From positions 24,936 to 88,935 of the forward strand of contig WGAO01000120.1 of NCBI GenBank assembly GCA_015489065.1: a DNA stretch of 64,000 nt. Reading direction: 5' to 3'. The DNA is from Thermotogaceae bacterium (GTDB taxonomy: Bacteria; Thermotogota; Thermotogae; Thermotogales; Thermotogaceae). Each line of letters opens with the position of its first letter. Positions within the stretch are counted from its first letter, which is position 1. Positions 7,431-37,117 of the stretch are shown here, one piece after another. The notes below the pieces were generated by a model that saw only the letters and a list, made by a program, of their open reading frames with translations, ran no database searches and had not been told where the DNA came from. A program made the translations under genes and the position numbers.

Positions 7431-8658
7431 GTGCTACCTTTGGATCTATACCTTTGAAGACCGCATCACTCATGGCCTGGAATATCGCATCGGAAACCTG
7501 CGACCATTGCGGAATAGCTGGTCTAGTACGTGCTACAGATGCCATCTTCATGTAAAAATCAAAGAATTCTATGGACTTCGATAGCTCCTCTTTATCCACA
7601 TCTGATCGGACCGGTACACGGGCCAAAGCGGCGTAATATTTTGTCATAACATCAGCTCTCAAAAAGGTTTTCATAACCTTTACCGCTTCTTTAAAGCGTT
7701 CAGGAGCTTTATCTTTTACAATGGCGGGTATTGACATTATCCATCCACCAGCAAGCGTTACGGGAACTTTTCCAGGCTCGGACACTGGAAGGGGAAGAAC
7801 TGCGATCATCTTCTCCCTCTCATCGGGAGTTGTACCAGGGAATCTACTTTCACTGGATGCCCAGTTTCCATGAGGATAAACTGCCCACTTTTTCTTTGCA
7901 AAATCATTTCCCCAGAAAGTTTCCGTCTGAGGATCTATCCCTGACTTAACTCTATCTACTAAGAATTTCAAGGCCTTCACTCCTGCTTCACTGTTAAACG
8001 CTGGATAAAACTTCCCGTTCTTCTTCACAAGGATCTTTCCACCCTCTTGCCACAAATATGGGAAAAATTCAAAATCGGGTGCCCAGCTTCCAGCCATGTC
8101 TAACCAACAAGCTCCTATTCCCTCGTCTGATAGCTCAGTCTTAAGCTTTTGACAAGCTTTTATAAAGGTATCCCAGTACAAGAGATTTCCTGGATTGACT
8201 CCTGCTTTCTTCAAAAGATCTGGCCAGTAAAACGTTGCACGCACATCTGTGTCGTACCATAGCCCATAGTATCTACCACTGCTTGGAGGCCATTGGGATC
8301 CTTCTCTAAACGCTTTGAACCAAGTTTTAGCTATTGGAGCTACAACATCGGTCAGATCTGCTAAGTATCCTCCTTCTACAAATTCACCAAGCCAAATGGA
8401 ATCTATCATTACTACATCTGGTGCAACTTCAGGATCTCTAGCCAACAAAGTCGTTTGTAATTTCGATCTCAGATCTCCGTACGAGAATTCGTGAATGTCT
8501 AGCTTCACACCACTTAGATCTTCTACTAATCCTTTTACTGCCTCCAACCCATATCCCTCTGGTTCCCATATTACAACAGTCCTTTGAGCGTAGAGAGTAC
8601 CAAATCCCAAGATAACGGTTAGTACTAATGCAAAAGTAGCGATACCAAACCTTCTCAT
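7387..8658 (-). CDS. Sugar ABC transporter extracellular solute-binding protein (family 1)
   Basis: 423 aa with an N-terminal signal/anchor (MRRFGIATFALVLTVILGF). It is the first gene of the binding-protein/permease/permease/regulator operon. Confidence 0.85.
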   Translation of the reverse strand: MRRFGIATFALVLTVILGFGTLYAQRTVVIWEPEGYGLEAVKGLVEDLSGVKLDIHEFSYGDLRSKLQTTLLARDPEVAPDVVMIDSIWLGEFVEGGYLADLTDVVAPIAKTWFKAFREGSQWPPSSGRYYGLWYDTDVRATFYWPDLLKKAGVNPGNLLYWDTFIKACQKLKTELSDEGIGACWLDMAGSWAPDFEFFPYLWQEGGKILVKKNGKFYPAFNSEAGVKALKFLVDRVKSGIDPQTETFWGNDFAKKKWAVYPHGNWASSESRFPGTTPDEREKMIAVLPLPVSEPGKVPVTLAGGWIMSIPAIVKDKAPERFKEAVKVMKTFLRADVMTKYYAALARVPVRSDVDKEELSKSIEFFDFYMKMASVARTRPAIPQWSQVSDAIFQAMSDAVFKGIDPKVALDRAAEKVKRILGW

Positions 8659-8692
8659 ACCTTATCCCCCCTTCTTTAGGCCTTTTCTCTAC

Positions 8693-8704
8693 TTGTATAT
8701 ACAA
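8693..8704. promoter_or_regulatory. Perfect 12-bp palindrome TTGTATATACAA, candidate GntR/AraR-type operator (proximal)
   Basis: Self-complementary 12-mer located 35-46 nt upstream of the binding-protein start codon (8658). An identical copy lies at 8787..8798. Confidence 0.55.
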
Positions 8705-8786
8705 TAACTAGATCAGAGAATTCATAGAATGCTTCACATTATCAAATGATAACTCTATGCATATTTAAAATCCAAATTTTTTATGC

Positions 8787-8798
8787 TTGTATATACAA
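8787..8798. promoter_or_regulatory. Perfect 12-bp palindrome TTGTATATACAA, candidate operator (distal copy)
   Basis: Identical to 8693..8704, and both are preceded by C (CTTGTATATACAA). The offset between copies is 94 bp. Confidence 0.5.
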
Positions 8799-8806
8799 CT
8801 AAATTC

Positions 8807-8848
8807 GAGAAAAAGAAAAACGCCGTAAAGGCTGGGATTTATTACGGC
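8807..8848 (-). terminator. Rho-independent terminator downstream of fliG
   Basis: On the minus strand the stem GCCGTAA-N13-TTACGGC is followed by GTTTTTCTTTTTCTC. It begins about 40 nt after the fliG stop. Confidence 0.7.
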
Positions 8849-8886
8849 AGGATTAAAGAATATAGAAAGGATTCACTACTAACTTA

Positions 8887-9903
8887 TCACAATATAAGCT
8901 CTTCTCCACCACCTCTTGCTATAACAATTTCACCAGCTTCTTCAAGTCTTCTTATGATGTTTATGATCTTCTGCTGAGCCTCCTCGACATCTTTCACTCT
9001 GACTGGCCCCATGAATTCGAGTTCATCCCTCAATAGCTGAGCTGCCCTCTTCGACATATTCTTGAATATCTTTTCCTTAACTTCTTCTGAGGCTCCTTTT
9101 AGAGCAACCGCGAGGTCTCTCGTATCCACCTCTCTCAAAACAAGCTGAATGGATCTGTCATCAAGTTTTAGTATATCTTCAAAGACAAACATTCTCCTTC
9201 TGATCTCTTCAGCGAGCTCTGGGGTTTCTTGCGATAATCTCTCCATTATCATTTTCTCCGTTTGCCTGTCTATGTTGTTCATTATTTCAGCGGCTGTATC
9301 AACTCCACCGACCTTGCTGAATTGTTGACTCACAACACCTGAGAGTTTTCTCTCAAGACTTTTCTCTATCTCTCTAACTATCTCTGGAGACGTTCTCTCA
9401 AGCAAAGCTATTCTCTTTACGACCTCAACCTGTAGCTCCTCTGGAAGCGCTCCCAGAACTTGAGCTGCCATTGATGGTTCTAGATAGCTCAGAACGAGTG
9501 CTATCACTTGTGGATGCTCATTCTGCAAGAAATTCACCAGCTGGATGGGATCGGTCTTTCTGACAAATTCAAAGGGTTTAACTTGCAGATTTGAAACAAG
9601 CCTTTCTATTATCTTCATTGCTTTCTCAGGACCAAAAGCTTTCTCAAGAACTTTCTTTGCGTACTCTATACCTCCCGTTGCCAGCATCTGCCTTGCTTTT
9701 AATATATTAGAAAACTCCTGGAGAACCACCTTTTTTTCTTCCTCAGAAACCTGACCAAGGTTGGCTATTTCTATTGTGAGCATCTCAACATCTGAATCAT
9801 CGAGGTGTTTTAAAACTTGCGCGGCCTTCTCAGGTCCCAAAATAACAAGGAGTATCGCTGCTTTTCTTCTACCGGGTATATCACTCGCCTTTAATTCTCC
9901 CAT
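8887..9903 (-). CDS. fliG: Flagellar motor switch protein FliG
   Basis: 338 aa. The sequence has the three-domain FliG pattern, including a C-terminal charged helix region (...RDELEFMGPVRVKDVEEAQQKII...). Confidence 0.92.
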   Translation of the reverse strand: MGELKASDIPGRRKAAILLVILGPEKAAQVLKHLDDSDVEMLTIEIANLGQVSEEEKKVVLQEFSNILKARQMLATGGIEYAKKVLEKAFGPEKAMKIIERLVSNLQVKPFEFVRKTDPIQLVNFLQNEHPQVIALVLSYLEPSMAAQVLGALPEELQVEVVKRIALLERTSPEIVREIEKSLERKLSGVVSQQFSKVGGVDTAAEIMNNIDRQTEKMIMERLSQETPELAEEIRRRMFVFEDILKLDDRSIQLVLREVDTRDLAVALKGASEEVKEKIFKNMSKRAAQLLRDELEFMGPVRVKDVEEAQQKIINIIRRLEEAGEIVIARGGGEELIL

Positions 9904-17359: not shown

Positions 17360-17388
17360 TTGCAACACAGGATGTTTTCCATTAAAAT
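17360..17388 (+). promoter_or_regulatory. Candidate sigma70-type promoter TTGCAA-17 nt-TAAAAT for the 17.4-24.3 kb cluster
   Basis: TTGCAA at 17360-17365, a 17-nt spacer, and TAAAAT at 17383-17388. The RBS GGAGGTGA at 17399-17406 and a TTG start at 17411 follow. Confidence 0.4.
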
Positions 17389-17410
17389 CATCTTCGCAGG
17401 AGGTGAATCA

Positions 17411-19213
17411 TTGCAGGCTGTTATATTGGCTGCCGGAATGGGGAAAAGACTCGGCAAGTACACAAAAGAAGTGACAAAGGGTATGGTCAGGGTTGTTGGA
17501 AAAACTTTATTAGAACATGCTTTAGACTCCTTGGTTGAAAAAGTCGACAGAGTCATATTGGTCGTTGGATACAAAGCCGAAAAGGTGAAGGAATTTCTCG
17601 GAAACTCTTACAAGGGATTAACGATATCTTATATAGACAACCCGCATTATGAAACCACAAACAACATATACTCACTATGGCTTGCGGCTGAGGAGATGAA
17701 AAAAGACGACACACTGCTCCTTGAAAGTGATGTGATTTTCGAAAGAGAAGTCATAGAACGCCTGGTTAAAACTGATGGTGAAGCGGTTGCCGTGATTCAC
17801 AAATTTGAAGACTGGATGGATGGTACCGTGGTTATCCTGGATGACTACGGGAACATAGCGTCTTTTCTGGATAAGTCTGCCATAGTTTGGGAAAACTCCG
17901 CAAATTATTACAAAACAGTTAACATTTACAAATTCTCCAAGGAATTCTTTTCAAAATACTATTTCCCATTTTTAAAGGCATATGTGGAATCGAACGGCTA
18001 CTCTTCTTACTACGAGGTAGTTCTTTCACTCATAGCCGGATTGAAAAATATAAAAATAAAACCTCTGATAATAGATGGATTGAAATGGTACGAGATAGAC
18101 ACACCAGAGGATCTGTGGTCCGCAAATGTCATATTCTCCGATTTGGACGAGAAATATGAGCTTCTAAAAAAATCGTATGGTGGGTACTGGAGATTTCCAA
18201 GTCTTAAAGACTTTTGCTATCTCGTAAATCCGTACTTTCCAAGTGAAAGCTTTTTATCTCGCATGAAAAAGATTTTTGAAAACCTGATAACTTCATACCC
18301 ATCCGGAAGAGAAAGAATAAAGCATCTCCTTTCGGAGATGTTTGGCGTTAGCCACGAGATGATCACAGCCGGTAACGGTGCCTCTGAAATCATCAAAGTT
18401 CTCTCAGAAGTGATTAAAGGAAGTTTCGGAATGATGATACCAACCTTTGAAGAATATCCAAACAGAATAAAGAACATCATCACTAGGAAACCAGAAAACG
18501 ATGGATTCAGATACTCTGAGAAGGATGTCATAGAGTTTTTCGAGGATGTCGACAACATCGTTCTTATCAATCCAGACAATCCAAGTGGAAACTTCATAAA
18601 CAGAGAAGGCATTCTAAATATTCTTGACAGCATTTCAGGATCAGAAAAGAATTTGATTCTCGATGAATCTTTTGTGGATTTCGCAAATCCTGATAAACGC
18701 TTCACTATGATAGTTGAGGATGTTCTGATGAAATACCCTAACTTGATTGTCGTGAAAAGTATAAGTAAAAGCTATGGTGTTCCTGGGATAAGACTCGGTG
18801 TAGTAGCTACTTCCAATGCAAACCTCCTGAGAAAGGTAGAAGAGAACATGCCAATATGGAACATAAACTCGTTTGCAGAATATTTTCTCCAAAAGATGGA
18901 GCCCTACAAAGATGAATACAAACTAGCTTGTGATCTTATATCTAAAGAGAGAGAATTTCTGATAAACGAATTGTCCAAGGTAGAAGGGATAAGAGTTTAT
19001 CCATCCCAAGCGAACTTCGTTTTATGTAGAGTAGAAAACTCTCAAGAAATAGCTCTGAAACTCTTGGCCAATGACATATTTATAAAGGACTGCTACGGAA
19101 AGTTGGGAATAGATAAGCCCAAGTACATTAGACTCTCTATTAGAAACAGAGAAGATAATAAAAAGCTGATTGAATCTATAAAAAGCGTACTGGAGGGCAA
19201 AGATGAAGTTTAA
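17411..19213 (+). CDS. Bifunctional fusion: LicC-like sugar/alcohol-phosphate nucleotidyl(cytidylyl)transferase plus class I/II PLP enzyme (HisC/CobD-like aminotransferase or decarboxylase)
   Basis: The N-terminus has AVILAAGMGKRLG...TNNIYSLWLA (NTP-transferase fold). The C-terminus has NPDNPSG and the PLP-lysine motif KSISKSYGVPGIRLG. The probable start is TTG 17411 behind GGAGGTGA; the ORF track starts at ATG 17360. Confidence 0.8.
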   Translation: MQAVILAAGMGKRLGKYTKEVTKGMVRVVGKTLLEHALDSLVEKVDRVILVVGYKAEKVKEFLGNSYKGLTISYIDNPHYETTNNIYSLWLAAEEMKKDDTLLLESDVIFEREVIERLVKTDGEAVAVIHKFEDWMDGTVVILDDYGNIASFLDKSAIVWENSANYYKTVNIYKFSKEFFSKYYFPFLKAYVESNGYSSYYEVVLSLIAGLKNIKIKPLIIDGLKWYEIDTPEDLWSANVIFSDLDEKYELLKKSYGGYWRFPSLKDFCYLVNPYFPSESFLSRMKKIFENLITSYPSGRERIKHLLSEMFGVSHEMITAGNGASEIIKVLSEVIKGSFGMMIPTFEEYPNRIKNIITRKPENDGFRYSEKDVIEFFEDVDNIVLINPDNPSGNFINREGILNILDSISGSEKNLILDESFVDFANPDKRFTMIVEDVLMKYPNLIVVKSISKSYGVPGIRLGVVATSNANLLRKVEENMPIWNINSFAEYFLQKMEPYKDEYKLACDLISKEREFLINELSKVEGIRVYPSQANFVLCRVENSQEIALKLLANDIFIKDCYGKLGIDKPKYIRLSIRNREDNKKLIESIKSVLEGKDEV

Positions 19214-19898
19214 GGAAACATTCAGATATTTCGAATCTCCCGCTTCTATGGTTTCATACTTTTTCGTGGATAGAATAGCGGCGCCTCTGGTATGGATGAA
19301 TGTGAACTTTTTAAAAATTCATCCAAATGTCCTATCGATGTTATCGGGGTTTTTCGCCATTCTAACGGTCTTAGAGTTTTTCAAAGGAAATTTCATAACC
19401 GGAGCTTTCCTTTACTTTCTATCGTTTTTGCTTGACTCCGCAGATGGACCATCTGCAAGAGCTATGAACAAAAAGACCCGTCTTGGAGTAGCCCTTGAAG
19501 TGTGGTTCGATTCGGCAAGACTTATTGGGTCTTCGTTCTCCATGGCTTGGAAACTGTACGAGGGTACGGAGAATTTTCTTTGGATGATACTCTTTCTTCT
19601 CTGGGGTGTATCATTCGGAGCAGGGATCTGGATTTATCAAAAAGCAAAAGAATCTTTTAAAGAAAACATATTCGAAAAACCAAAAAAGGAGTATTCATTC
19701 GCACCGCTCATAACTTGGATGGATCTTGAAATGCTTGAATTTTTCTTCGCTCCCATCTTTGGATTTGTGAAAATCGGCTATATAGTTCTGTCAATAGGCT
19801 ATCTCATTACAACTGCTGGTATGACTGTATATACAGTGTTCGAAGATGAAATAAACAACTTTTTTGGCAAAACGAGAAAGGAGAAAAACAAATCGTGA
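19203..19898 (+). CDS. CDP-alcohol phosphatidyltransferase family membrane protein
   Basis: The motif DSADGPSARAMNKKTRLGVALEVWFD corresponds to D-x2-D-G-x2-A-R-x8-G-x3-(D->E)-x3-D. The protein is polytopic. It overlaps the upstream gene by 11 nt. Confidence 0.8.
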   Translation: MKFKETFRYFESPASMVSYFFVDRIAAPLVWMNVNFLKIHPNVLSMLSGFFAILTVLEFFKGNFITGAFLYFLSFLLDSADGPSARAMNKKTRLGVALEVWFDSARLIGSSFSMAWKLYEGTENFLWMILFLLWGVSFGAGIWIYQKAKESFKENIFEKPKKEYSFAPLITWMDLEMLEFFFAPIFGFVKIGYIVLSIGYLITTAGMTVYTVFEDEINNFFGKTRKEKNKS

Positions 19899-20863
19899 AA
19901 AAGTTCGTAGTAAGCGCAATAATAGCCGTTTCAATAAGCCTTGGTACCATGGCTCTCATAGGATTCTTCAACGGTGGATTCGATACTCTGGAAAATGTTC
20001 CGTTGAGGATACATCTTCTCACTCTTTTTGGATTTATATTCCTGTACATATTCGGGGGACTCAGTACAAAACTCTTCATGTGGTTTCTTGGATATAAAAT
20101 CAGCTTTCTCAACTCTCTGGAGAATTTCTTCTTTGGAAACTTTTTTTCGTACATAACTCCAATGTATATAGGAGGACAGCCATTCCAAATCCATCATTTA
20201 TCAAAGATTGGCGTTAAAAACGGAGATGCAACGAATTTTGTCATGACAAGACTTTTTGAATCCTTTATAACAACGCTCATTTTGGATCTTTCTATATACA
20301 GGTATGCTATGACAAAGCTGAACTTTGGTAAAGTAGGTGAAACACTCATAAAACTCGGATTCTCGCTTCAATTTCTTTGGACGGTCTTGATACTTCTTTT
20401 CTTGTTCTTTCCAAGAATTTTTAACTTTCTCATGAGACCGGTTTTCAAGATCATGAAGAGAAAGAGCGATGACCTGGAAACTTGGCTTTTGAGTTTGAAA
20501 AACAGTGTAAGAACTGTGTGGAGAAAAAAACCCCTCGCACTAGTACTTGATATGATCTGGTGGTTTGTCAACATAAGTATACATGCACTTCCGTTTTACA
20601 TGATCTTTGAGTACTTTAATCCTCAGTTTAAAATGGGATTTTTTCATCTTTTAGCCGTTTTGTCGCTCGTCAACACTGTTGCTTACTACACACCAACCCC
20701 TGGAGCCACCGGGGGAGTTGAAGGAATATACCACTTAACCTTATCTGGAATGGTGAGCTACGAATCAATTACAGTGGCACTGCTTATATGGCGCGTTTAC
20801 AGTTACTACATACCAATTCTGGTAGGTCTTATAATGATATGGCGTGTGAGGAAATTGATATAG
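19895..20863 (+). CDS. UPF0104 / lysyl-PG-synthase-TM-region (flippase-like) membrane protein, copy 1
   Basis: 322 aa polytopic protein with GGQPFQIHHLSKIGV and TPTPGATGGVEG motifs. It overlaps the upstream gene by 4 nt. Confidence 0.7.
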   Translation: MKKFVVSAIIAVSISLGTMALIGFFNGGFDTLENVPLRIHLLTLFGFIFLYIFGGLSTKLFMWFLGYKISFLNSLENFFFGNFFSYITPMYIGGQPFQIHHLSKIGVKNGDATNFVMTRLFESFITTLILDLSIYRYAMTKLNFGKVGETLIKLGFSLQFLWTVLILLFLFFPRIFNFLMRPVFKIMKRKSDDLETWLLSLKNSVRTVWRKKPLALVLDMIWWFVNISIHALPFYMIFEYFNPQFKMGFFHLLAVLSLVNTVAYYTPTPGATGGVEGIYHLTLSGMVSYESITVALLIWRVYSYYIPILVGLIMIWRVRKLI

Positions 20864-20875
20864 TAGGTGATTTGA

Positions 20876-22036
20876 ATGAAAGGTTCTTTATTTCTATATT
20901 TTTTCACAGGTTTTACTTTAGGATCTCTCATAATACTGCTTTTTGGGCTGAATTTTATAAGCGTGATATTCGCCGCGCTTTTGGGAATTATATTTGAAAT
21001 ATTCCTGTACATAAGGGGAATACCTCCAAAAAGAAAAAAAGATGTGGAAGATCTGGTGTGCATAATAATTCCTGCTTACAATGAAGAAAACTCTTTGAGA
21101 AAATCCGTAGAATCTGCAATAAAGCAAAGTTACAAAAACAGATTAATAGTCCTTATGAACGATAATTCAACCGACAATACAGGAATACTAATGGAAAGAT
21201 ACGCAAAAGAATATGAAAATGTGATCTACCTGAGAAATTATGAAAATCTCGGAAAATTTAGTTCTATAATGAGGGTTTTCAAAGAAGTAAATGCAGACAT
21301 ATATGTCATAGTGGATGCAGACAACGAATTTCCAGAAAACTATATCGAATACTATGTGAAGAGAATGGAAAATATAGACGCTCTTGAAACTCCACTATCT
21401 TCATACAATGCTTGCAAGAATTTCACATCTTTAATTCATACACTTGAAATATCTTTGATGAGCTCTATAAGGTTTATGAATCTATTCCCAAACTTCACGG
21501 GAAGAGGAATGTTTATAAGAAAAAAAGTACTGGAGTTTCTCCACGAAAAAAACATAAAAGGCAAAGACGATGGCGCTATGATGAATGTCGCTATGAAGCA
21601 TGGAAATTTCAAATACAGATACTTCACAGGACCCGCTCTCAAAGAGTATGCCACAGAAAAATTCAGGGATTTTGTAAACCAACGAGATAGGTGGTACACA
21701 CTTGGTATGGTAGAAACTCTTAAAAAAGGAGCTCGGACACTCTCTACGGTATTCGGATTGTATTCCAGCTTGGTTTTCTCAACGATATTTCTGGGTGTAA
21801 CTATGCCATTACTTGGCTTTAGATGGTACTCGGTTTTAATGATAGAATTGCTCACTGGTGTATTCTTCCATTCAATTATCTACTCAGTGAAATTTGAGAT
21901 AAACTGCAACAGGTTTATAAATGGAATATTCGGAATAGTGATGTTGTTGATAAACACCTCCCTAATATTCAGATCATTCTGCAGAGTAATATTTGGAAGG
22001 ATCCCAAAAACCTGGTACAAAGTTCCAAAATCCTGA
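20876..22036 (+). CDS. Membrane-embedded family-2 glycosyltransferase (IcaA/PgaC/NodC-like architecture), copy 1
   Basis: N-terminal TMs, then IIIPAYNEE, NDNSTDNT, VDADNE (DxD) and QRDRW (QxxRW), then C-terminal TMs. Confidence 0.8.
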   Translation: MKGSLFLYFFTGFTLGSLIILLFGLNFISVIFAALLGIIFEIFLYIRGIPPKRKKDVEDLVCIIIPAYNEENSLRKSVESAIKQSYKNRLIVLMNDNSTDNTGILMERYAKEYENVIYLRNYENLGKFSSIMRVFKEVNADIYVIVDADNEFPENYIEYYVKRMENIDALETPLSSYNACKNFTSLIHTLEISLMSSIRFMNLFPNFTGRGMFIRKKVLEFLHEKNIKGKDDGAMMNVAMKHGNFKYRYFTGPALKEYATEKFRDFVNQRDRWYTLGMVETLKKGARTLSTVFGLYSSLVFSTIFLGVTMPLLGFRWYSVLMIELLTGVFFHSIIYSVKFEINCNRFINGIFGIVMLLINTSLIFRSFCRVIFGRIPKTWYKVPKS

Positions 22037-22066
22037 TGTTCTCCAATCTGGTATAATGACGCTGTC

Positions 22067-23062
22067 ATGAGAATGAAAAAAATCCTACTATCACTTTTTA
22101 TAGCGTTCGTATCGAGTTTCACAGTTGTAATATTCTTAAACTTCTTTCATAGGGGCAGAGCGGGATTTCTTGATCTTTTGAGCACTTTGCCTATTCATAT
22201 TTATTTTATGGCTTTTCTAATATTTACGAGTTCTTATTTCCTAGAAGCTCTTAGAATAGTCTATCTCGTAAGACATAGAGGATACAAAATTGGCTTTTTC
22301 AGTGCCATTTACAACACAGTCATAGGATATTTGTTCTCTTTCCTGACTCCATTTGCCATGGGAGGGCAGCCGTTTCAGGTGTTCCACCTGTCGAAGCTCG
22401 GTGTGGATTCAAGCTATGCCACTGGTATAATGGGAGCAAGAATGCTAGAAAACTCTCTTGGTGGAGCAGTTATAGCCTTAATAATGCTCAACACCAGCCT
22501 TGGATGGATTCTAAAAAATGGTCACCTGGTAATTGGAGGAGTAATCATAAGCTTGTCTGTATCTATAGCTATAGTAATATCGATGTTCAAGCCCAAGATC
22601 TTGATGCCACTTGTTAAAATTGCTTCAAGAATTTTCAAAAAAGATCTCGTAGAATCTTTCAATACATGGAGAGAAAATTTCGAGCTTAGTATCAATTATA
22701 TGTGGAAAGAAAATTTCTATCTCGTCATACTTGATGTTTTGGAATGGTTCGCAACTCTGGTGATACAAATTTACTCTCTATTTTACATTCTAAATTTTCT
22801 TTCAAATGTCAAACTGAATTTCTGGCTAGTTTTCGGATCAATAAATGCCGTTAACGCTTTAGCATACTTCATCCCAACACCTGGGGCATCTGGAGGAATA
22901 GAGTTTACATATCAATATGTATTGTCGGGAATAACAATGAACAGTGGAATAGCTCTTAAAGCTGTTACCTCTTGGAGAGTGGTGTCTTATTACCTGCAAA
23001 TCCTTCTTGGAATAATATTTCTGGGAGCGTTTGGAAAGATCGGTCTGGAGGGAAATAAATGA
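22067..23062 (+). CDS. UPF0104 / flippase-like membrane protein, copy 2
   Basis: 331 aa with GGQPFQVFHLSKLGV and IPTPGASGGIEF, the same motifs as 19895..20863. Confidence 0.7.
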   Translation: MRMKKILLSLFIAFVSSFTVVIFLNFFHRGRAGFLDLLSTLPIHIYFMAFLIFTSSYFLEALRIVYLVRHRGYKIGFFSAIYNTVIGYLFSFLTPFAMGGQPFQVFHLSKLGVDSSYATGIMGARMLENSLGGAVIALIMLNTSLGWILKNGHLVIGGVIISLSVSIAIVISMFKPKILMPLVKIASRIFKKDLVESFNTWRENFELSINYMWKENFYLVILDVLEWFATLVIQIYSLFYILNFLSNVKLNFWLVFGSINAVNALAYFIPTPGASGGIEFTYQYVLSGITMNSGIALKAVTSWRVVSYYLQILLGIIFLGAFGKIGLEGNK

Positions 23063-24264
23063 GCTTGGTTTGGGTTTTCTTTTCACTATCAATTTCGGCG
23101 GGAATATTTACAATTCTGATAGGTAAATACATAAACTATATGAGAACAACAAGACTCCATGTCAGCAAGAAAAGGGATTTCAAACCATTTGTTTCCGTGA
23201 TCATACCAACCTGGAACGAAGCAGATGTTATAGAAAATACCATCAGAAATGTAGAAGAGAGTTTTTACGAGAAATTCGAAATAATAGTCGTGGATGATAG
23301 ATCCACAGACGGAACTTATGAAATACTCAAAGATCTAGAAAAAGAATACTCGAACTTAATAGTTCTCAAAAAGAAAGGAAGGAAAGGAAAGCCTCAATCT
23401 ATAAACGAAGCCATGGAAGTGGCTCGTGGAGACATCATACTGTTTTTGGATGCGGATTCAAGAATATCTCCCGAATATATTTCAACTCATGTTGCATGTT
23501 TCTCACACCCAAATGCAAATATGATATTCACAGATTTCGAACCTTACAACTACAAACCGAAAAATCTTTCCCACAAAATTCAAGAACTCTTCTTTTCTTT
23601 TGCAAAAGATGTCATATATTCAAACATATTTGTGAAGATGATATTCATGGGTAACGGGGTTTTCTTCAAGAGAGAGATACTCGACAAAGTTGTTCCAATA
23701 GATCCAACCACCTTAGTAGATGATTTTACGATAGCTTCAAAGCTATCAGAAATAGGTGTGAGAGAGGTCTTTTCAATCTACCCCTGGGTAAACATACAGT
23801 ACGCAAACTCCCTAAAGGATCTTTGGAAGCAACATATGAGATGGTATTACGGAGGATTCAGAGAAATAGTCAAGTTTATGAAAGCTGGAAATCTCAAATA
23901 CTTGCTTTTTTACATACTCTCAATCGCATTTTTTACAAGTCCCATATGGTTTACAATCCTCTGGATATTTTTCGGCAATTTCTGGCTATTTTTGGGGCTT
24001 TACCTTATAGTCTATGCTTACTCACTCTTTACTTTCTCACAACTCTTGGATGTCAATAGAAGATTAAGTGTCCTGTCAACTTTCATTCTACCAGCACTTG
24101 TCATGGTCTTCGAACTCTCCGTACTGATCCCCGCCATGCTAAAATCTCTTTTTGTGGAAAGATACTACGAGGTAATGGATAGGATAGGAAAAAGGATAAA
24201 CAAGAACTTGAGCAAAAAGGATAAAGAGGAGGATTGGTACAAAGTAAAAAGAGATAGATACTAA
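23059..24264 (+). CDS. Membrane-embedded family-2 glycosyltransferase, copy 2
   Basis: VIIPTWNEA, VDDRSTDGT, LDADS (DxD) and QHMRWYYG (QxxRW), with flanking TM helices. It overlaps the upstream gene by 4 nt. Confidence 0.8.
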   Translation: MSLVWVFFSLSISAGIFTILIGKYINYMRTTRLHVSKKRDFKPFVSVIIPTWNEADVIENTIRNVEESFYEKFEIIVVDDRSTDGTYEILKDLEKEYSNLIVLKKKGRKGKPQSINEAMEVARGDIILFLDADSRISPEYISTHVACFSHPNANMIFTDFEPYNYKPKNLSHKIQELFFSFAKDVIYSNIFVKMIFMGNGVFFKREILDKVVPIDPTTLVDDFTIASKLSEIGVREVFSIYPWVNIQYANSLKDLWKQHMRWYYGGFREIVKFMKAGNLKYLLFYILSIAFFTSPIWFTILWIFFGNFWLFLGLYLIVYAYSLFTFSQLLDVNRRLSVLSTFILPALVMVFELSVLIPAMLKSLFVERYYEVMDRIGKRINKNLSKKDKEEDWYKVKRDRY

Positions 24265-24278
24265 AGGAGGTGCTCCCG

Positions 24279-24617
24279 ATGGATTGTGTCTTCTGCAAAA
24301 TAATAGAGGGTGAGATACCATCGGAGAAAGTCTACGAAGATGAAGACTTTTTAGTGATAAAAGACATACGCCCTGTGGCGCCAGTTCATTTGCTCGTCCT
24401 TTACAAAAAGCATGTCGGAAAGATTCATCAGCTCTCAGAAGAGGACAGAAAGAAGCTCTCTAAGGTCTTTGAGTTAATAGCCAAAGTCGCAGAAAAGAGC
24501 GGAATTCTGGAGAGTGGATACAGGGTAGTTGTAAACAACGGTCCTGATGCAGGACAAGAAGTAGATCACATACACTTTCATGTGATAGGCGGAAAGAAGC
24601 TGGGGAAGATAGCGTGA
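24279..24617 (+). CDS. HIT-family nucleotide hydrolase/transferase
   Basis: The histidine triad HIHFHVIGG is present. The probable ATG at 24279 (MDCVFCKI...) lies 8 nt after AAGGAGG; the track ORF begins at GTG 24270. Confidence 0.9.
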   Translation: MDCVFCKIIEGEIPSEKVYEDEDFLVIKDIRPVAPVHLLVLYKKHVGKIHQLSEEDRKKLSKVFELIAKVAEKSGILESGYRVVVNNGPDAGQEVDHIHFHVIGGKKLGKIA

Positions 24618-25606
24618 AGAGAGTGGTGATAATCACCACAGGCGGAACTATAGCCATGACAAAAACTCATAACGGCGTTGTTCCTTTCTCAGGGGGAAAC
24701 TCTTTGATCACACAGATCCCAGGACTGGAAAATGTGGCAGAAATAGATCATGTCGAATTTTCAAATGTTCCAAGCCCCTATATGACGCCTGATATGATGT
24801 GGAAACTATCCAGAATGGTTCAGGATATCGTAAACGATAAGGAAGTTGATGGAGTTGTGATAACACACGGCACGGACACACTCGAAGAGACCTCATATTT
24901 TCTTGATCTGACCGTAAATACTGAAAAACCCATAGTGCTCACGGCAGCTATGAGAAACATAAACGAACTCGGAACCGATGGGCCTAGGAATGTTCTTTCA
25001 TCTCTGAGAGTTGCTGTTTCTGACAGCGCCTTTGGCATGGGCGTTATGGTGTGCTTGAACGATGAAATACATGCAGCAAGAGAAGTGACCAAAACTTACA
25101 CAAGCAATGTTGCAACCTTTGAATCACCTGGATATGGTCCACTTGGAATAGTTGATGAAGATGCAGTGGTCTTCTTCAGGAAGCCTCTTCTCAGAATGAA
25201 TATAGATACCGACAGGATAGAGAGCAGGGTAGCTCTTGTAAAAACCTTTACAGGAGATAACGGAGATATTCTTAGAAAAGTTGTTGATATGGGGTACAAG
25301 GGAATAGTGCTGGAAGGATTTGGAAGGGGAAATGTGCCACCGAAAGTTGCAGATGCTGTGTCAGATGTCATAGACAAAGTTGTGGTAGTTCTAACATCGA
25401 GATGCTTTAAGGGAAGAGTTCTGGATGTTTATGGATACAAAGGGGGAGGAGCTGATCTAGTAAAAAGAGGGGTTATACTTGGACAGGAAGTTTCATCTCA
25501 GAAAGCCAGGATAAAGTTAATGGTGGTTTTGGGAAAGACAGAAGATAGGGATAAGATAAGGAAGTATTTTGAGACCTCAAGGGCAGGTGGGGAAATATCG
25601 ATCTAA
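24614..25606 (+). CDS. ansA: L-asparaginase, type I
   Basis: TTGGTIAM and HGTDTLEETSYFL catalytic motifs; 330 aa. Confidence 0.9.
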   Translation: MKRVVIITTGGTIAMTKTHNGVVPFSGGNSLITQIPGLENVAEIDHVEFSNVPSPYMTPDMMWKLSRMVQDIVNDKEVDGVVITHGTDTLEETSYFLDLTVNTEKPIVLTAAMRNINELGTDGPRNVLSSLRVAVSDSAFGMGVMVCLNDEIHAAREVTKTYTSNVATFESPGYGPLGIVDEDAVVFFRKPLLRMNIDTDRIESRVALVKTFTGDNGDILRKVVDMGYKGIVLEGFGRGNVPPKVADAVSDVIDKVVVVLTSRCFKGRVLDVYGYKGGGADLVKRGVILGQEVSSQKARIKLMVVLGKTEDRDKIRKYFETSRAGGEISI

Positions 25607-25611
25607 AAAAA

Positions 25612-26610
25612 TTGAATCTTGCTACTCTAATTACCTTACTCTTCTTTCTATTTATAGTATTCGTTTTCATGATAAAGGATGTAGCAGTTGTTCTTGTACT
25701 CATCTTCATATCGGTTTCCGTGTTGAAAGCGTTGAATGACGCTCTAGAGAGGATTTTAAGGAGTAACTCCCTTAGGGTGTTAATATCGATCTCGATCTAT
25801 TTCTTATTTCTAGCTTTCACCATTTGGTTAATAGTCCCGGCTGTTGTTAAAGAATTCGGAAGTTTTTACAAGCTAATGATGGGAGATGTCAACCTAAAGA
25901 GCTGGAAGAAATTCTTTGAAAACGATAGGATTTTAGACCTTTTCCAAAAGATTATAGACTACATGAAACCCCGGATAAATGATTATGTCAATACAGCGCT
26001 CACAACATTAGCAACATCTACTCCTAAATTTGGTATGCAGATATTCTTCGTAATCCTCGGTACGATATACTCACTCATCTATTTCGATCATCTGAGAAAT
26101 CTTCCAAAGGTTCTCTATCCAAGAAAACTTCATTCTATTGTCTTGCCATTCTCCAACGAACTATTCGCAAATCTCATGAGATTCGTACAGGCCGTTTTTG
26201 TCACGGCGATGCTCACCGGAATTCTTTTCTTCCTATCCTTTGAGATAATGGGCCTAAAATACAGTATAACCATAGGCGTTTGGGCATTCGTGACAAATTT
26301 CATGCCGATAGTTGGTGTGCTCTTTGAATACATACCGGTTTTATTATTTTCGCTTTCGCTCGGTTTCAAAGGGGTTATAATCATGACACTGATAACTCTG
26401 GCGATACACACAGTATCTTTCGTAACATTCATACACATGATGAAGGGATACTCAAACATCAGCCCGGTGGAGATGCTGTTCTTTATTCTCCTTCTTTGGA
26501 AACTATATGGACTGATGGGAATATTCATAGCAGTACCGCTGACAATATTCATAAACACATTCTGGAAGTATTTCATAAGACCTCGTTATGAGGGGGAGGA
26601 AATGATTTGA
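25612..26610 (+). CDS. AI-2E family transporter (PerM/UPF0118)
   Basis: 332 aa polytopic protein with the typical AI-2E topology and the C-terminal pattern ...FIAVPL.... Confidence 0.7.
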   Translation: MNLATLITLLFFLFIVFVFMIKDVAVVLVLIFISVSVLKALNDALERILRSNSLRVLISISIYFLFLAFTIWLIVPAVVKEFGSFYKLMMGDVNLKSWKKFFENDRILDLFQKIIDYMKPRINDYVNTALTTLATSTPKFGMQIFFVILGTIYSLIYFDHLRNLPKVLYPRKLHSIVLPFSNELFANLMRFVQAVFVTAMLTGILFFLSFEIMGLKYSITIGVWAFVTNFMPIVGVLFEYIPVLLFSLSLGFKGVIIMTLITLAIHTVSFVTFIHMMKGYSNISPVEMLFFILLLWKLYGLMGIFIAVPLTIFINTFWKYFIRPRYEGEEMI

Positions 26611-34422: not shown

Positions 34423-35616
34423 ATGGGCTATAAGATTCTGAAAGAAGAAGATGTAGTAGATTATGTCAAAAGTAAGAAACTTTTAAACGGGAAAGAATTT
34501 TCCGTCAAACAAGTCGGAGATGGAAACCTAAACAATGTCTACAGAGTGGTCAATGAACAAGGAGAATCTATCATTATTAAACAGGCACTTCCTTATGTGA
34601 AAATAGTTGGAGACAGCTGGCCTCTTCCCCTAGAGAGAAACACTATAGAAGCAAAGGCACTGAAAATACATGGCAAATACTGCCGAAAGCATGTTGTGAA
34701 AGTTCTGTATGTAGATGAAGAATATTATTTAATGGTTATGGAAGATCTATCAAACATGGAAGTCATGCGTCTTGGAATGATACGAATGAAGAAATATCCC
34801 AAGTTTTCAGAACATATTTCTTCCTACTTGGCGAAAACTTTCTTTTACACAAGTGATTTCTTTATGGATCCTATAAAGAAAAAAGAGTTGGTTAAAGAAT
34901 TTATAAATCCTCATCTGTGCAAAATAACAGAGGATCTAATCTTCACGGATCCATACTATGACGCTCCAAGAAATAACATAAATCCTGAACTTTTATCTTA
35001 TCTAAAAAACAAATTTTGGAAAAGAAGATACCTTTGGAGAGAAGCTTCGAAGATGAAATACAAATTCCTCACAGAGGCAGAATCTCTGGTACATGGCGAC
35101 CTTCATACGGGCTCTATATTTGCAAATGAAAATGAGACAAAGGTATTCGATGCAGAGTTTGCATATTTCGGTCCGGCAGCTTTTGATCAAGGGCTCCTCC
35201 TTGGAAACATACTCATAAACTACATTTCATTTGAGGGAAAAGACTTCCCAAAAGATAAAGTTCAGGATTACAGGCAATTCATACTCACAATGATTGAGGA
35301 AATCTATGAAAAATTCTCAAAGAAACTCAGAAAGCTTTGGAAAAAAGTCAATGACATAAGCTTTAAAGACGAATGCTTTTTGGATTACTACTTAGAGAAA
35401 TACTTCGAGGATATGCTTGGATACGCGTCAGTTGTGATGATAAGAAGAATGCATGGCTTGGCTCACAATATAGATGTTGATGAGATCGAAGATTTAAAAG
35501 TTAGGAGCGAGGTTCAGAAGCTAATTTTAGATATGGCAACAAACATAATGATGACAAGAAAACACTGGAAGGACATAAAAGAAGTCACCGAATATGTAAA
35601 GAGTTTTATCTTCTAA
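34423..35616 (+). CDS. mtnK: 5-methylthioribose kinase
   Basis: VGDGNLNNVYRV...IIKQALPYVKIVGDSWPLPLERNTIEAKAL aligns by eye with B. subtilis MtnK. HGDLHTGSIF is the catalytic loop. Confidence 0.88.
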   Translation: MGYKILKEEDVVDYVKSKKLLNGKEFSVKQVGDGNLNNVYRVVNEQGESIIIKQALPYVKIVGDSWPLPLERNTIEAKALKIHGKYCRKHVVKVLYVDEEYYLMVMEDLSNMEVMRLGMIRMKKYPKFSEHISSYLAKTFFYTSDFFMDPIKKKELVKEFINPHLCKITEDLIFTDPYYDAPRNNINPELLSYLKNKFWKRRYLWREASKMKYKFLTEAESLVHGDLHTGSIFANENETKVFDAEFAYFGPAAFDQGLLLGNILINYISFEGKDFPKDKVQDYRQFILTMIEEIYEKFSKKLRKLWKKVNDISFKDECFLDYYLEKYFEDMLGYASVVMIRRMHGLAHNIDVDEIEDLKVRSEVQKLILDMATNIMMTRKHWKDIKEVTEYVKSFIF

Positions 35617-35634
35617 ACGAAAGGAGAGTCTGAA

Positions 35635-36051
35635 ATGCTTAAAAAAATTCCAAAGTTCTTTCCGCCGGAACTAATGAAAGTTTTAATGGAAATGGGACAT
35701 GGCGATGAAATAGTCATAGTTGATGGGAATTTTCCGGCATATTCTGTCAATAGTAAAGTTATAAGAGTCGATGGAGTAGACACTCCCACACTTCTTAAAG
35801 CCGTCTTGGAATTCCTTCCACTGGACACTTTCTCAAAGAACAATATTTTCCTGATGAAACCCACAGATGATCACATTCCAGAAGTTTGGAACAAGTACAG
35901 AGAGGTTCTTTCCAGATCAGATGAAGAAGTCGGGCAAGTCGCTTTAGACAGGATGGAATTTTACGAGAGGGCAAAGAAAGCTTTTGCTGTTGTAGCAACA
36001 TCCGACACTATGCATTATGCATGCGTCATATTGAAGAAGGGTGTTCTCTGA
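35635..36051 (+). CDS. RbsD/FucU-family sugar mutarotase/pyranase
   Basis: MLKKIPKFFPPELMKVLMEMGHGDEIVIVDGNFPAYS closely resembles the FucU N-terminus (..PELLKVLAEMGHGDEI...FPA.S). Confidence 0.85.
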   Translation: MLKKIPKFFPPELMKVLMEMGHGDEIVIVDGNFPAYSVNSKVIRVDGVDTPTLLKAVLEFLPLDTFSKNNIFLMKPTDDHIPEVWNKYREVLSRSDEEVGQVALDRMEFYERAKKAFAVVATSDTMHYACVILKKGVL

Positions 36052-36082
36052 ACTCCGTCAACTAGAGAAGGAGGGCTCTATT

Positions 36083-37117
36083 ATGTTAGATTCGATGGTT
36101 TGGATCGAAAAAGAGAAGAAATTGAAAGTTCTGAATCAGAGGAAACTTCCTACGGAAATAGAATATCTCGAGAAGAACACCGTCGATGATGTTTTCTGGA
36201 CTATAAAGAACATGGAAGTCAGAGGTGCTCCTCTCATAGGTGTCGTAGCTGCTTACGGAATTGTAATAGCTGCAAAATATGCGAAAGATGCCAACGACTT
36301 TTTAAAAAAAGTAGAATTAGGTGTTGAGAAACTTAAAAAATCCAGGCCAACAGCTGTCAATCTGTTCTGGGCTCTGGATAGAATGAAGAAGAAGGCTATG
36401 GAAATAAGCAAATCTGGTATGAGTGTGTCTGAAATGCTAGACGAGCTCGAAAAAGAAGCGAAAGCTATACACGAGGAGGATATAACATCTAACAGAAAAA
36501 TTGGAGAGAATTTCATAGAGAACGGTCTGGTGAAGGATGGCGACGTGATACTCACTCACTGCAATGCTGGGGCTTTGGCAACTTCGAAGTACGGAACGGC
36601 AACATCACCGATGTATCTAGCAAAGGAAAAAGGATGGAATATAAAAGTCTTTGCCGATGAGACAAGGCCTTACCTTCAAGGAGCGAGACTAACAACTTTC
36701 GAACTCTTCCAAGCTGGCATAGATGTTACGCTTATCTGTGACAACATGGCAGGTTGGGTTATGAAAAATAAGATGATAGATAAAATAATAGTCGGAGCTG
36801 ACAGAATAGCAAGGAATGGTGATGTTGCAAATAAAATTGGTACTATGAGCTTAGCAGTTCTAGCTAACAGATTTGGTATTCCGTTCTATGTGGCAGCTCC
36901 CACATCTACGATAGATATGAACTGCAAGGATGGAAGTGAAATACCAATTGAAGAGAGGAATCCTGAAGAGATCACCAAATGGTTTGGGATTCAGATAGCT
37001 CCCGAAGGCATTAATGTCTTCAATCCCGCCTTCGATGTTACCCCTAATGAATTGATAACAGCAATAGTTACCGAAAAAGGAGTTATAAAAGTTCCTGAGA
37101 GAGATCTTGATCTCTGA
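36083..37117 (+). CDS. mtnA: Methylthioribose-1-phosphate isomerase
   Basis: VRGAPLIGVVAAYG, CNAGALAT, ETRPYLQGARLT and GADRIARNGDVANKIGT motifs. The probable ATG at 36083 lies 7 nt after GAAGGAGGG; the track ORF starts at 36041. Confidence 0.9.
   Translation: MLDSMVWIEKEKKLKVLNQRKLPTEIEYLEKNTVDDVFWTIKNMEVRGAPLIGVVAAYGIVIAAKYAKDANDFLKKVELGVEKLKKSRPTAVNLFWALDRMKKKAMEISKSGMSVSEMLDELEKEAKAIHEEDITSNRKIGENFIENGLVKDGDVILTHCNAGALATSKYGTATSPMYLAKEKGWNIKVFADETRPYLQGARLTTFELFQAGIDVTLICDNMAGWVMKNKMIDKIIVGADRIARNGDVANKIGTMSLAVLANRFGIPFYVAAPTSTIDMNCKDGSEIPIEERNPEEITKWFGIQIAPEGINVFNPAFDVTPNELITAIVTEKGVIKVPERDLDL

Follow-up and report, generated by a model that had tools for sequence, protein, structure and literature searches.

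We analyzed a 64,000-nucleotide stretch of DNA (the window) from a Thermotogaceae bacterium (assembly GCA_015489065.1, contig WGAO01000120.1, positions 24,936 to 88,935 of the forward strand). It carries a gene whose predicted product joins an N-terminal nucleotidyltransferase domain to a C-terminal pyridoxal phosphate (PLP)-dependent domain, here called the fusion. The open reading frame (ORF) of 600 amino acids (aa) was confirmed, with a TTG start codon at position 17411 (Table 1). Two longer in-frame starts lie upstream, TTG at 17360 and ATG at 17372, the latter being that of the database gene call (613 aa). We considered 17411 the best start because the homologues begin at the equivalent MQAVILAAG. 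The Pfam models NTP_transferase and NTP_transf_3 matched aa 3 to 239, and Aminotran_1_2 matched aa 313 to 590 (84 bits), all over their curated cut-offs. An AlphaFold2 model of the fusion protein, built on 25 homologues, was confident, with a predicted local distance difference test score (pLDDT) of 91 and a predicted template modeling score (pTM) of 0.84.

Table 1. Position of the fusion gene, its domains and the other genes of the operon in the window
Feature	Position	Strand	Remarks
Ribosome-binding site GGAGGTG	17399..17405	+	5 nucleotides (nt) 5' of the TTG start; read from the sequence
Fusion gene, 600 aa: N-terminal nucleotidyl(cytidylyl)transferase and C-terminal PLP-dependent CobD/SMUL_1544-like decarboxylase (predicted)	17411..19213	+	
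Nucleotidyltransferase domain, aa 1-245	17411..18145	+	Pfam PF00483/PF12804
PLP domain, aa 255-598	18173..19204	+	Pfam PF00155; NCBIfam CobD model 175.6 bits
Cytidine diphosphate (CDP)-alcohol phosphotransferase, 231 aa	19203..19898	+	PF01066, 51 bits; own ribosome-binding site GGAGGG
Flippase-like LPG_synthase_TM protein (MprF flippase-domain family)	19895..20863	+	PF03706, 108.8 bits; TIGR00374; overlaps upstream gene by 4 nt
Membrane-bound glycosyltransferase family 2 (GT2) enzyme, first of two	20876..22036	+	PF00535/PF13641; same order in locus L003
Second flippase-like LPG_synthase_TM protein	22067..23062	+	PF03706, 98 bits
Second membrane-bound GT2 enzyme (PgaC/IcaA-like fold family)	23059..24264	+	PF00535, 118 bits; TIGR03937, 113 bits, under cut-off

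The nucleotidyltransferase domain contains the G9-x-G11-x-R13-L loop, K23, TNNIYSL (aa 83 to 89), E105 and D107, E202 and D230. The PLP domain contains the motif D-F-C-Y-L-V-N-P-Y, N390, D418, K453, R461, K559 and R574. K453 (codon 18767 to 18769) is the Schiff-base lysine, D418 the pyridine-nitrogen aspartate, N390 the O3' asparagine and R461 the PLP-phosphate arginine; K453 and R461 align with K216 and R224 of CobD. A preliminary description of this DNA, made from the sequence alone, had quoted four motifs, LAAGMGKRLG (aa 6 to 15), TNNIYSL, NPDNPSG (aa 387 to 393) and SISKSYGVPGIRLG (aa 450 to 463), and their residues were invariant in 25 of 25 diverse homologues. When the family was clustered at 50% identity and represented by one member per cluster, 86 in all, the catalytic residues G9, G11, R13, K23, E105, D107, E202, D230, N390, D418, K453, R461 and R574 were kept in 80 to 86 of them (81 to 84 for G9, G11, R13, K23, D107 and D230). 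This conservation is far beyond chance, and both domains look intact and under selection. The ORF, the domain split and all four motifs of the preliminary description were therefore borne out, and its assignment of a LicC-like N-terminal domain and a HisC/CobD-like PLP domain of class I/II holds.

The PLP domain is nearer to proven decarboxylases, SMUL_1544 and then CobD, than to the histidinol-phosphate aminotransferase HisC. The best phmmer match in the PDB was SMUL_1544 of Sulfurospirillum multivorans (6oux; E value, 1e-44; 32.9% identity to the PLP domain of the window), followed by the structural genomics entry 3ftb (2e-40; 28.9%), CobD of S. enterica (1lc5; 2.5e-28; 26.6%), CobD of P. 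gingivalis (3fkd; 1e-23; 24.6%) and E. coli HisC (1fg3; 1e-15; 19.7%). Genuine HisC structures were all at 1e-17 or weaker. With a hidden Markov model (HMM) of the family's PLP domain, the same five proteins scored 231, 186, 149, 132 and 87 bits, respectively. Foldseek gave the same ranking, with template modeling (TM) scores normalized to the target of 0.77 to 0.88 across the PLP fold matches; 6oux is titled [quoted passage not shown] In a neighbor-joining tree based on Kimura distances, with HisC as the root and 100 bootstraps, the branching order from the root was 3ftb, the two CobD proteins, SMUL_1544 and the fused family. The fused family and SMUL_1544 excluded CobD in 60 of the 100 bootstraps, and with CobD included they excluded 3ftb in 72. 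A motif at the start of the domain, D-x-C-Y-L-x-N-P-Y, is common to the fusion family and SMUL_1544 and is found in neither CobD nor 3ftb.

No histidine biosynthesis genes were found near the fusion gene in the window, and no cobamide genes (cbiB, cobU or cobS) were found among the window ORFs scanned or among the recurrent neighbors of 79 related loci. A housekeeping HisC or CobD was rejected on account of scores below the cut-offs, the phylogeny and this gene context. The phylogenetic placement proposed in the preliminary description was thus carried out, and the domain did not group firmly with housekeeping HisC; it is of the CobD/serine-phosphate decarboxylase type, with SMUL_1544 as its sister in the tree. 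Decarboxylase instead of transaminase chemistry would be expected of such a domain. SMUL_1544 reportedly decarboxylates L-serine-O-phosphate, in the work of Keller et al. 2016, 2019. Its gene is in a cobamide operon (PMC7755780), and the protein governs the synthesis of norcobamides, in which an ethanolamine linker replaces aminopropanol (PMC6759758). The reference structure 3fkd, deposited as L-threonine-O-3-phosphate decarboxylase, has a His in place of the Schiff-base Lys (SFSHAYG), so that its annotation may be doubtful.

For the N-terminal domain, the best PDB matches were LicC (5.5e-11), IPCT (6.5e-10) and PntC (1.4e-9), then IPCT-DIPPS. All four are cytidylyltransferases for small phospho-alcohols, in agreement with the resemblance noted in the preliminary description, and sugar-1-phosphate enzymes ranked lower. 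The substrate of this domain is not settled by homology alone. In the crystal structure of PntC with the cytidine monophosphate (CMP) conjugate of 2-aminoethylphosphonate (AEP), the amine of AEP is hydrogen-bonded by Glu104 and Glu196, both of which are Asp in LicC (PMC6697681). A sequence alignment pairs these two residues of Tde-PntC with E105 and E202 of the fusion, which were kept in 80 and 82 of the 86 representatives, respectively. The predicted pocket is therefore of the primary-amine type, with Glu/Glu as in PntC instead of Asp/Asp and an aromatic box as in LicC. As for the nucleotide donor, the PDB ranking, the CDP-dependent partner enzymes and an alternative fusion to a PF01467 cytidylyltransferase (see below) point to cytidine triphosphate (CTP), whereas NCBIfam models of uridine or guanosine triphosphate-dependent sugar-1-phosphate transferases scored slightly higher, below cut-off. 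The domain may be specific for CTP.

We then looked at the distribution of the fusion, which the preliminary description had called unusual. This was not the case. More than 8000 database proteins matched it at an E value of 1e-10 or lower, and all 120 of the 120 matches listed were full-length fusions (47 to 100% identical, at least 97% query coverage). A scan of one genome per species found a relative in at least 586 species-level genomes. Carriers include Treponema, Bacteroidales, Alistipes, Prevotella, a Bacteroides thetaiotaomicron isolate, Lachnospiraceae, Clostridium, Aquificales, Campylobacterales, Elusimicrobia and Melainabacteria, as well as a Methanosarcina genome. A sensitive search with the PLP domain only returned 623 clusters (50% identity) at E < 1e-30; among the best 150 of these 623, 102 had the architecture of nucleotidyltransferase plus PLP domain, and the remainder were mostly fragments. 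The database names of the relatives are generic, such as "aminotransferase class I/II-fold PLP-dependent enzyme."

Several proteins of the same PLP clade have additional or exchanged domains. In P0227, P0145 and P0245, the two domains are followed by a C-terminal S-adenosylmethionine-dependent methyltransferase. The best PDB matches of the P0227 methyltransferase domain were the Arabidopsis phosphoethanolamine (4e-11) and phosphomethylethanolamine (2e-9) N-methyltransferases; that of P0145 gave generic methyltransferase matches only. A triple fusion of the P0227 type may be a one-protein route from phosphoserine to CDP-choline or methylated ethanolamine head groups. P0256 carries a GNAT acetyltransferase domain in addition to the two domains. 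In P0199 the N-terminal domain is replaced by a PF01467 cytidylyltransferase (TagD/ECT type) of unrelated fold, and in P0144 a TagF-like CDP-alcohol phosphotransferase is joined to the PLP domain. By their domain combinations, these variants point to cooperation of the PLP domain with cytidylyl activation, and they indicate that its product would carry an amine open to methylation or acylation.

The gene neighborhoods were surveyed in the 79 loci, which come from many phyla; neighbors were clustered, and only recurrent clusters were annotated. A LicD or TagF-like phosphotransferase was encoded within 8 kb of the fusion in 46 loci. Such phosphotransferases use CDP-alcohols. An opine dehydrogenase or an ornithine cyclodeaminase (OCD)/mu-crystallin protein was found within 8 kb in 25 loci, where its gene mostly follows the fusion directly and in the same orientation. 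Direct succession was seen in Bacteroidales, one Methanosarcina genome and other carriers, with an opine dehydrogenase in L019, L022, L035, L043, L044, L055, L056, L061, L073, L074 and L078-L080 and an OCD/mu-crystallin protein in L002, L024, L030, L037, L039, L057, L072, L075, L076 and L083. The two protein types are imine reductases, for which a primary amine and a 2-oxo acid are the partners to be condensed, and their position suggests an N-(carboxyalkyl) modification of the amino-alcohol phosphate; N-(1-carboxyethyl)ethanolamine phosphate, a substituent of some O-antigens, would fit. The surrounding loci were polysaccharide- or teichoic-acid-like, with Wzx-type flippases, GT2/GT4 glycosyltransferases, LytR-CpsA-Psr proteins and sugar-nucleotide enzymes. 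In Treponema loci (L004, L009, L011, L014, L029, L048 and others), a conserved gene pair lies upstream of the fusion. One of the two genes encodes a 912-aa protein that combines a YidC-like 60KD_IMP domain with a weakly sulfatase-like region, and the other a divergent TagF-like phosphotransferase; the pair often has a GtrA-GT1 fusion beside it. These upstream genes look like spirochaete machinery resembling teichoic-acid synthesis. Taken together, the LicD, TagF-like and opine dehydrogenase neighbors, the fusion variants and the Glu pair favor a primary amino-alcohol activated with CDP, of which CDP-ethanolamine is the most likely.

A phosphonate product was also considered. The phosphoenolpyruvate (PEP) mutase motif EDKxxxxxNS was absent from every frame of the window, and an FrbH-like phosphonate pathway was rejected for the window on this ground. 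Among the 79 loci, the motif was present in only 4, all from spirochaetes (L010, L054, L065 and L082), and most family members would therefore act on phosphate esters. In these four loci the fusion lies directly upstream of a complete 2-aminoethylphosphonate cluster (CyTase-Ppm and Ppd). A gene for PntC-AEPT, a known fusion of a cytidylyltransferase with a transaminase, is also present in L010 and L054, and the contig of L065 stops short of this site. In the spirochaete loci, amino-alkyl head groups of the phosphate and of the phosphonate type seem to be produced in parallel.

FrbH nevertheless provides a precedent for the architecture of the fusion. It acts on 2-amino-4-phosphonobutyrate, the compound that corresponds to O-phosphoserine as its C-P isostere. 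FrbH belongs to the FR-900098 pathway of Streptomyces rubellomurinus, and its N-terminal part is a cytidylyltransferase, its C-terminal part a decarboxylase; the substrate is first cytidylylated, and the resulting CMP conjugate is then decarboxylated (PMC8976061, PMC9088020, PMC6697681). Judged by the published architecture, FrbH is like the fusion in having the cytidylyltransferase at the N terminus and the PLP decarboxylase at the C terminus, and its product is a CMP-activated primary amine, as proposed for the fusion. Unlike the fusion, it uses a phosphonate substrate and serves a PEP mutase-dependent antibiotic pathway, whereas the context in the window is membrane or cell-surface synthesis. 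The preliminary description had the phospho-amino-alcohol made first and then activated with CDP. That order is possible and is one of two, because in FrbH cytidylylation precedes decarboxylation.

The fusion gene of the window is the first of an operon of six genes, which have a GC content of 35 to 39%, compared with 43 to 44% in the flanking genes. The gene next to it was confirmed as a CDP-alcohol phosphotransferase gene, as the preliminary description had it, both by its Pfam match and by the signature D78xxD81GxxAR86x8G95xxxE99xxxD103, which was invariant in 5 homologues. Its first 11 nt lie within the end of the fusion gene, to which it is translationally coupled. The subfamily of this transferase is rare, with 11 protein clusters in 5.8 billion sequences (profile search included), and includes THA_1129 of Thermosipho africanus and a protein of T. 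melanesiensis. The link between the fusion and the transferase is conserved: the order fusion, CDP-alcohol phosphotransferase and flippase-like gene was kept in two other genomes, in L003 with the same synteny (fusion 79% identical) and in L084 at another site of the genome (53% GC), beside a ribosomal protein operon. A flippase-like gene always followed the transferase gene (L003, L084, L085, L086, L088 and L089). The transferase as a general companion of the fusion family was rejected; it is confined to Thermotogota-type loci, and elsewhere LicD or TagF-like enzymes are found.

In other Thermotogota-type loci, the PLP enzyme of the module differs. On Thermosipho-type contigs, the transferase and flippase-like pair comes after a stand-alone nucleotidyltransferase and a PhnW/AEPT-like class V transaminase, and in L089 it comes after a stand-alone nucleotidyltransferase and a HisC-like gene. 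The modules thus have a nucleotidyltransferase, a CDP-alcohol transferase and a flippase-like protein as their constant core, with an interchangeable PLP enzyme. The simplest product that these modules could have in common is a 2-aminoethyl phosph(on)ate head group. The HisC-like gene of L089 could be there by chance adjacency, or another head group could be made. In L088, a Thermosipho africanus-type locus whose module has a PhnW/AepZ-like class V transaminase, the stand-alone nucleotidyltransferase gene (8292-9004) is interrupted by a frameshift in a T homopolymer; this may be an assembly error or a pseudogene.

Other features of the window were also recorded. From 19895 to 24264 it encodes two successive pairs of LPG_synthase_TM and GT2 proteins, which recall glycolipid synthase/flippase pairs. 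After the operon (24270-26610) come genes for a HIT-family hydrolase, an asparaginase and an AI-2E transporter; they accompany the operon in L003 and are inverted in L084. At 34423-37117, a kinase-like-looking ORF of 397 aa, a small ORF and an IF-2B-family protein (found in a library scan) lie together and may form a methionine-salvage cluster of the MtnK/MtnA type. An Rfam scan of the window found one tRNA and no other RNA element, and promoter and terminator scans of the window remained at background level.

Based on these results, we propose that the fusion is a bifunctional enzyme that converts O-phospho-L-serine and CTP into CDP-ethanolamine and feeds a Kennedy-like synthesis of amino-lipids, and we give this a probability of roughly 0.55. 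We infer the substrate, the order of the steps, the acceptor and the flipping as follows. The PLP domain would strip the alpha-carboxylate, as in SMUL_1544 and CobD, and the N-terminal domain would move CMP from CTP to the phosphate, as in LicC, PntC and IPCT. Phosphoserine may be converted into phosphoethanolamine and then into CDP-ethanolamine, or, in the FrbH-like order, into CDP-serine and then into CDP-ethanolamine. The coupled phosphotransferase would pass the phospho-amino-alcohol from CDP to a membrane acceptor, with release of CMP. A diacylglycerol-type lipid could serve as the acceptor, as could a glycolipid produced by the two GT2 enzymes, and the flippase-like LPG_synthase_TM protein would bring the product to the outer leaflet.

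The preliminary description held that the substrate could not be read from the sequence. It has now been narrowed by inference: the kinship with SMUL_1544, the methyltransferase of P0227 and the conserved Glu pair together favor phosphoserine and its conversion into ethanolamine phosphate. The same chemistry acting on another amino-acid phosphate, either L-threonine-O-3-phosphate to give CDP-(R)-1-amino-2-propanol or O-phospho-L-homoserine to give CDP-3-aminopropanol, is unlikely, although it has something to recommend it: the best NCBIfam model is the threonine-phosphate decarboxylase CobD, CobD structures are strong fold matches, and phosphohomoserine is also a central metabolite. Phosphoserine is preferred over threonine phosphate because it is a general metabolite, which threonine phosphate is not, whereas no threonine kinase (PduX/GHMP type) was found in the operon or among the recurrent, annotated neighbors. 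It is also preferred because the closest characterized relative, SMUL_1544, which is nearer than CobD by every measure, serves an ethanolamine-linker pathway, and because one fused methyltransferase, that of P0227, resembles phosphoethanolamine N-methyltransferases.

A number of observations weigh against the proposed CDP-ethanolamine route. The score of the fusion with the NCBIfam equivalog model of CobD (TIGR01140; 175.6 bits) did not reach the cut-off of 290.55, and for this reason the PLP domain is not CobD itself and forms a separate subfamily. Nor was the cut-off of the HisC equivalog reached (TIGR01141; 156.6 versus 276.55 bits), and the two scores are close together. The bootstrap value for the sister relation with SMUL_1544 was moderate (60%), and the PDB relative that ranks second, the uncharacterized structural genomics entry 3ftb, bears the name histidinol-phosphate aminotransferase in its deposit. 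With NCBIfam models, the N-terminal domain scored higher with the sugar-1-phosphate nucleotidyltransferases Arch_glmU (99 bits) and AglF (85 bits) than with IPCT (75 bits), all far under cut-off. In the CDP-alcohol phosphotransferase, a Glu (E99) replaces Asp at the third acidic position of the signature D-x2-D-G-x2-A-R-x8-G-x3-D-x3-D, which belongs to the six-helix membrane core of this family, and is invariant in the 5 closest homologues. The closest folds of the transferase are AF2299, IPCT-DIPPS and phosphatidylinositol phosphate (PIP) synthases, which use inositol-phosphate acceptors, and human CEPT1 is a weak match. The HisC-like gene of L089 and the class V transaminase of Thermosipho suggest that the head group may vary by lineage or arise by transamination.

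Some of these observations would fit other explanations. The PLP domain could be an aminotransferase of the HisC/Cj1437 type, forming amines from keto or aldehyde phosphates before cytidylylation, for example serinol phosphate from dihydroxyacetone phosphate or phosphoethanolamine from phosphoglycolaldehyde. The closeness of the HisC and CobD scores, the name of 3ftb and the transaminase families of related modules (PhnW-like in Thermosipho, HisC-like in L089) are in its favor, as is PntC-AEPT, in which a transaminase is fused to a cytidylyltransferase (PMC6697681). We nevertheless regard it as rather improbable: E. coli HisC is the most distant of the references by identity and HMM score, the E values of characterized HisC structures are poorer than those of the decarboxylases by 10 orders of magnitude or more, and FrbH, of the same architecture, is a decarboxylase (PMC8976061). 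The inositol-type folds of the transferase, the IPCT/DIPPS model among the NCBIfam matches of both the N-terminal domain and the transferase, and the hydrothermal vent source would agree with a soluble phosphodiester, a compatible solute like di-myo-inositol phosphate, formed from the CDP-amine by the transferase acting as a DIPPS. This is quite improbable, given that a flippase-like LPG_synthase_TM protein comes after the transferase in every case, with membrane GT2 enzymes as well in the window, that no inositol-1-phosphate synthase gene was found nearby, and that a PLP step has no role in the known pathways to di-myo-inositol phosphate-type solutes. Finally, the generic "aminotransferase class I/II" annotations and the sugar-nucleotidyltransferase models at the top of the NCBIfam matches of the N-terminal domain could be taken to mean that chance had joined a housekeeping HisC or CobD to an unrelated sugar-1-phosphate nucleotidyltransferase and that the two domains are metabolically unconnected. 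We find this hardly credible, since the fusion is kept in at least 586 species, the same PLP clade was fused independently, in P0199, to a cytidylyltransferase of unrelated fold, the neighborhood holds no his or cob genes, and both equivalog cut-offs were missed by more than 100 bits.

The proposed bifunctional CDP-ethanolamine enzyme can be compared with other known systems. SMUL_1544, the closest characterized relative of the PLP domain (32 to 33% identity; target-normalized TM score, 0.77 to 0.82), makes the head group proposed for the fusion, ethanolamine phosphate. Unlike the fusion, it is a stand-alone protein of a cobamide operon, without a nucleotidyltransferase (PMC7755780), and its product goes to CbiB, in contrast to the activation by CTP proposed here. 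CobD and HisC share with the fusion the PLP fold type I and the Schiff-base, PLP-binding and phosphate-binding residues, whereas the fusion scores under both equivalog cut-offs and has no cobamide or histidine context. PntC-AEPT of Treponema denticola (Tde1415; 6pd1/6pd2) is like the fusion in joining an N-terminal LicC-like cytidylyltransferase to a C-terminal PLP enzyme. It makes a CMP-activated 2-aminoethyl-phosphorus head group for the cell surface, it was the top whole-chain Foldseek match of the fusion, and its amine-binding Glu pair is kept in the fusion. Unlike the fusion, it has a class V transaminase as the PLP domain, a phosphonate substrate and a different domain packing (root mean square deviation of about 22 Å). 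The two are not redundant, because they are encoded side by side in four Treponema loci. The Kennedy CDP-ethanolamine pathway (ECT and ethanolaminephosphotransferase) and the LicCA/CPT route to phosphatidylcholine in Treponema denticola follow the same logic, from a CDP-amino-alcohol to diacylglycerol. These routes start from a kinase acting on free ethanolamine or choline, whereas the fusion would decarboxylate an amino-acid phosphate, and the cytidylyltransferase fold of ECT differs from that of the N-terminal domain. Unlike them, the module of the window has a dedicated flippase-like partner, and its transferase is only weakly like human CEPT1.

No paper on the non-phosphonate fusion family was found in the open-access full texts that were searched. 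The two-domain architecture itself is already known, with FrbH as the precedent. Judged on open-access text, what may be new is the formation of cell-surface CDP-amino-alcohol precursors from ordinary phosphate esters by this type of enzyme, and its coupling in a few Thermotogota to a divergent CDP-alcohol phosphotransferase and an MprF-like flippase, which would give a Kennedy-like lipid pathway. We suggest tentatively, and with less than even confidence, that many bacteria and some archaea make CDP-ethanolamine without free ethanolamine, by decarboxylating and cytidylylating phosphoserine on one polypeptide, that variants with a fused methyltransferase may give CDP-choline, and that a few Thermotogota use the product for a Kennedy-type amino-phospholipid or phosphoethanolamine-glycolipid via the divergent transferase and the MprF-like flippase, bypassing Pss/Psd. 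If so, a common gene annotated as "aminotransferase class I/II" would supply CDP-activated head groups of the ethanolamine type in organisms that include gut Bacteroidales, Treponema, Clostridia, Methanosarcina and thermophiles, and thousands of database entries could be correctly annotated. The head groups would go to teichoic-acid-like polymers, capsules and glycans via LicD or TagF-like enzymes, and to membrane lipids in Thermotogota. This would explain phosphoethanolamine-type and N-modified (carboxyalkyl, methyl or acetyl) decorations made without free ethanolamine or phosphatidylethanolamine as a donor. In addition, the principle seen with FrbH and PntC for phosphonates would apply to ordinary phosphate esters as well, and the bacterial routes to amino-phospholipids would be joined by a Kennedy-like one.

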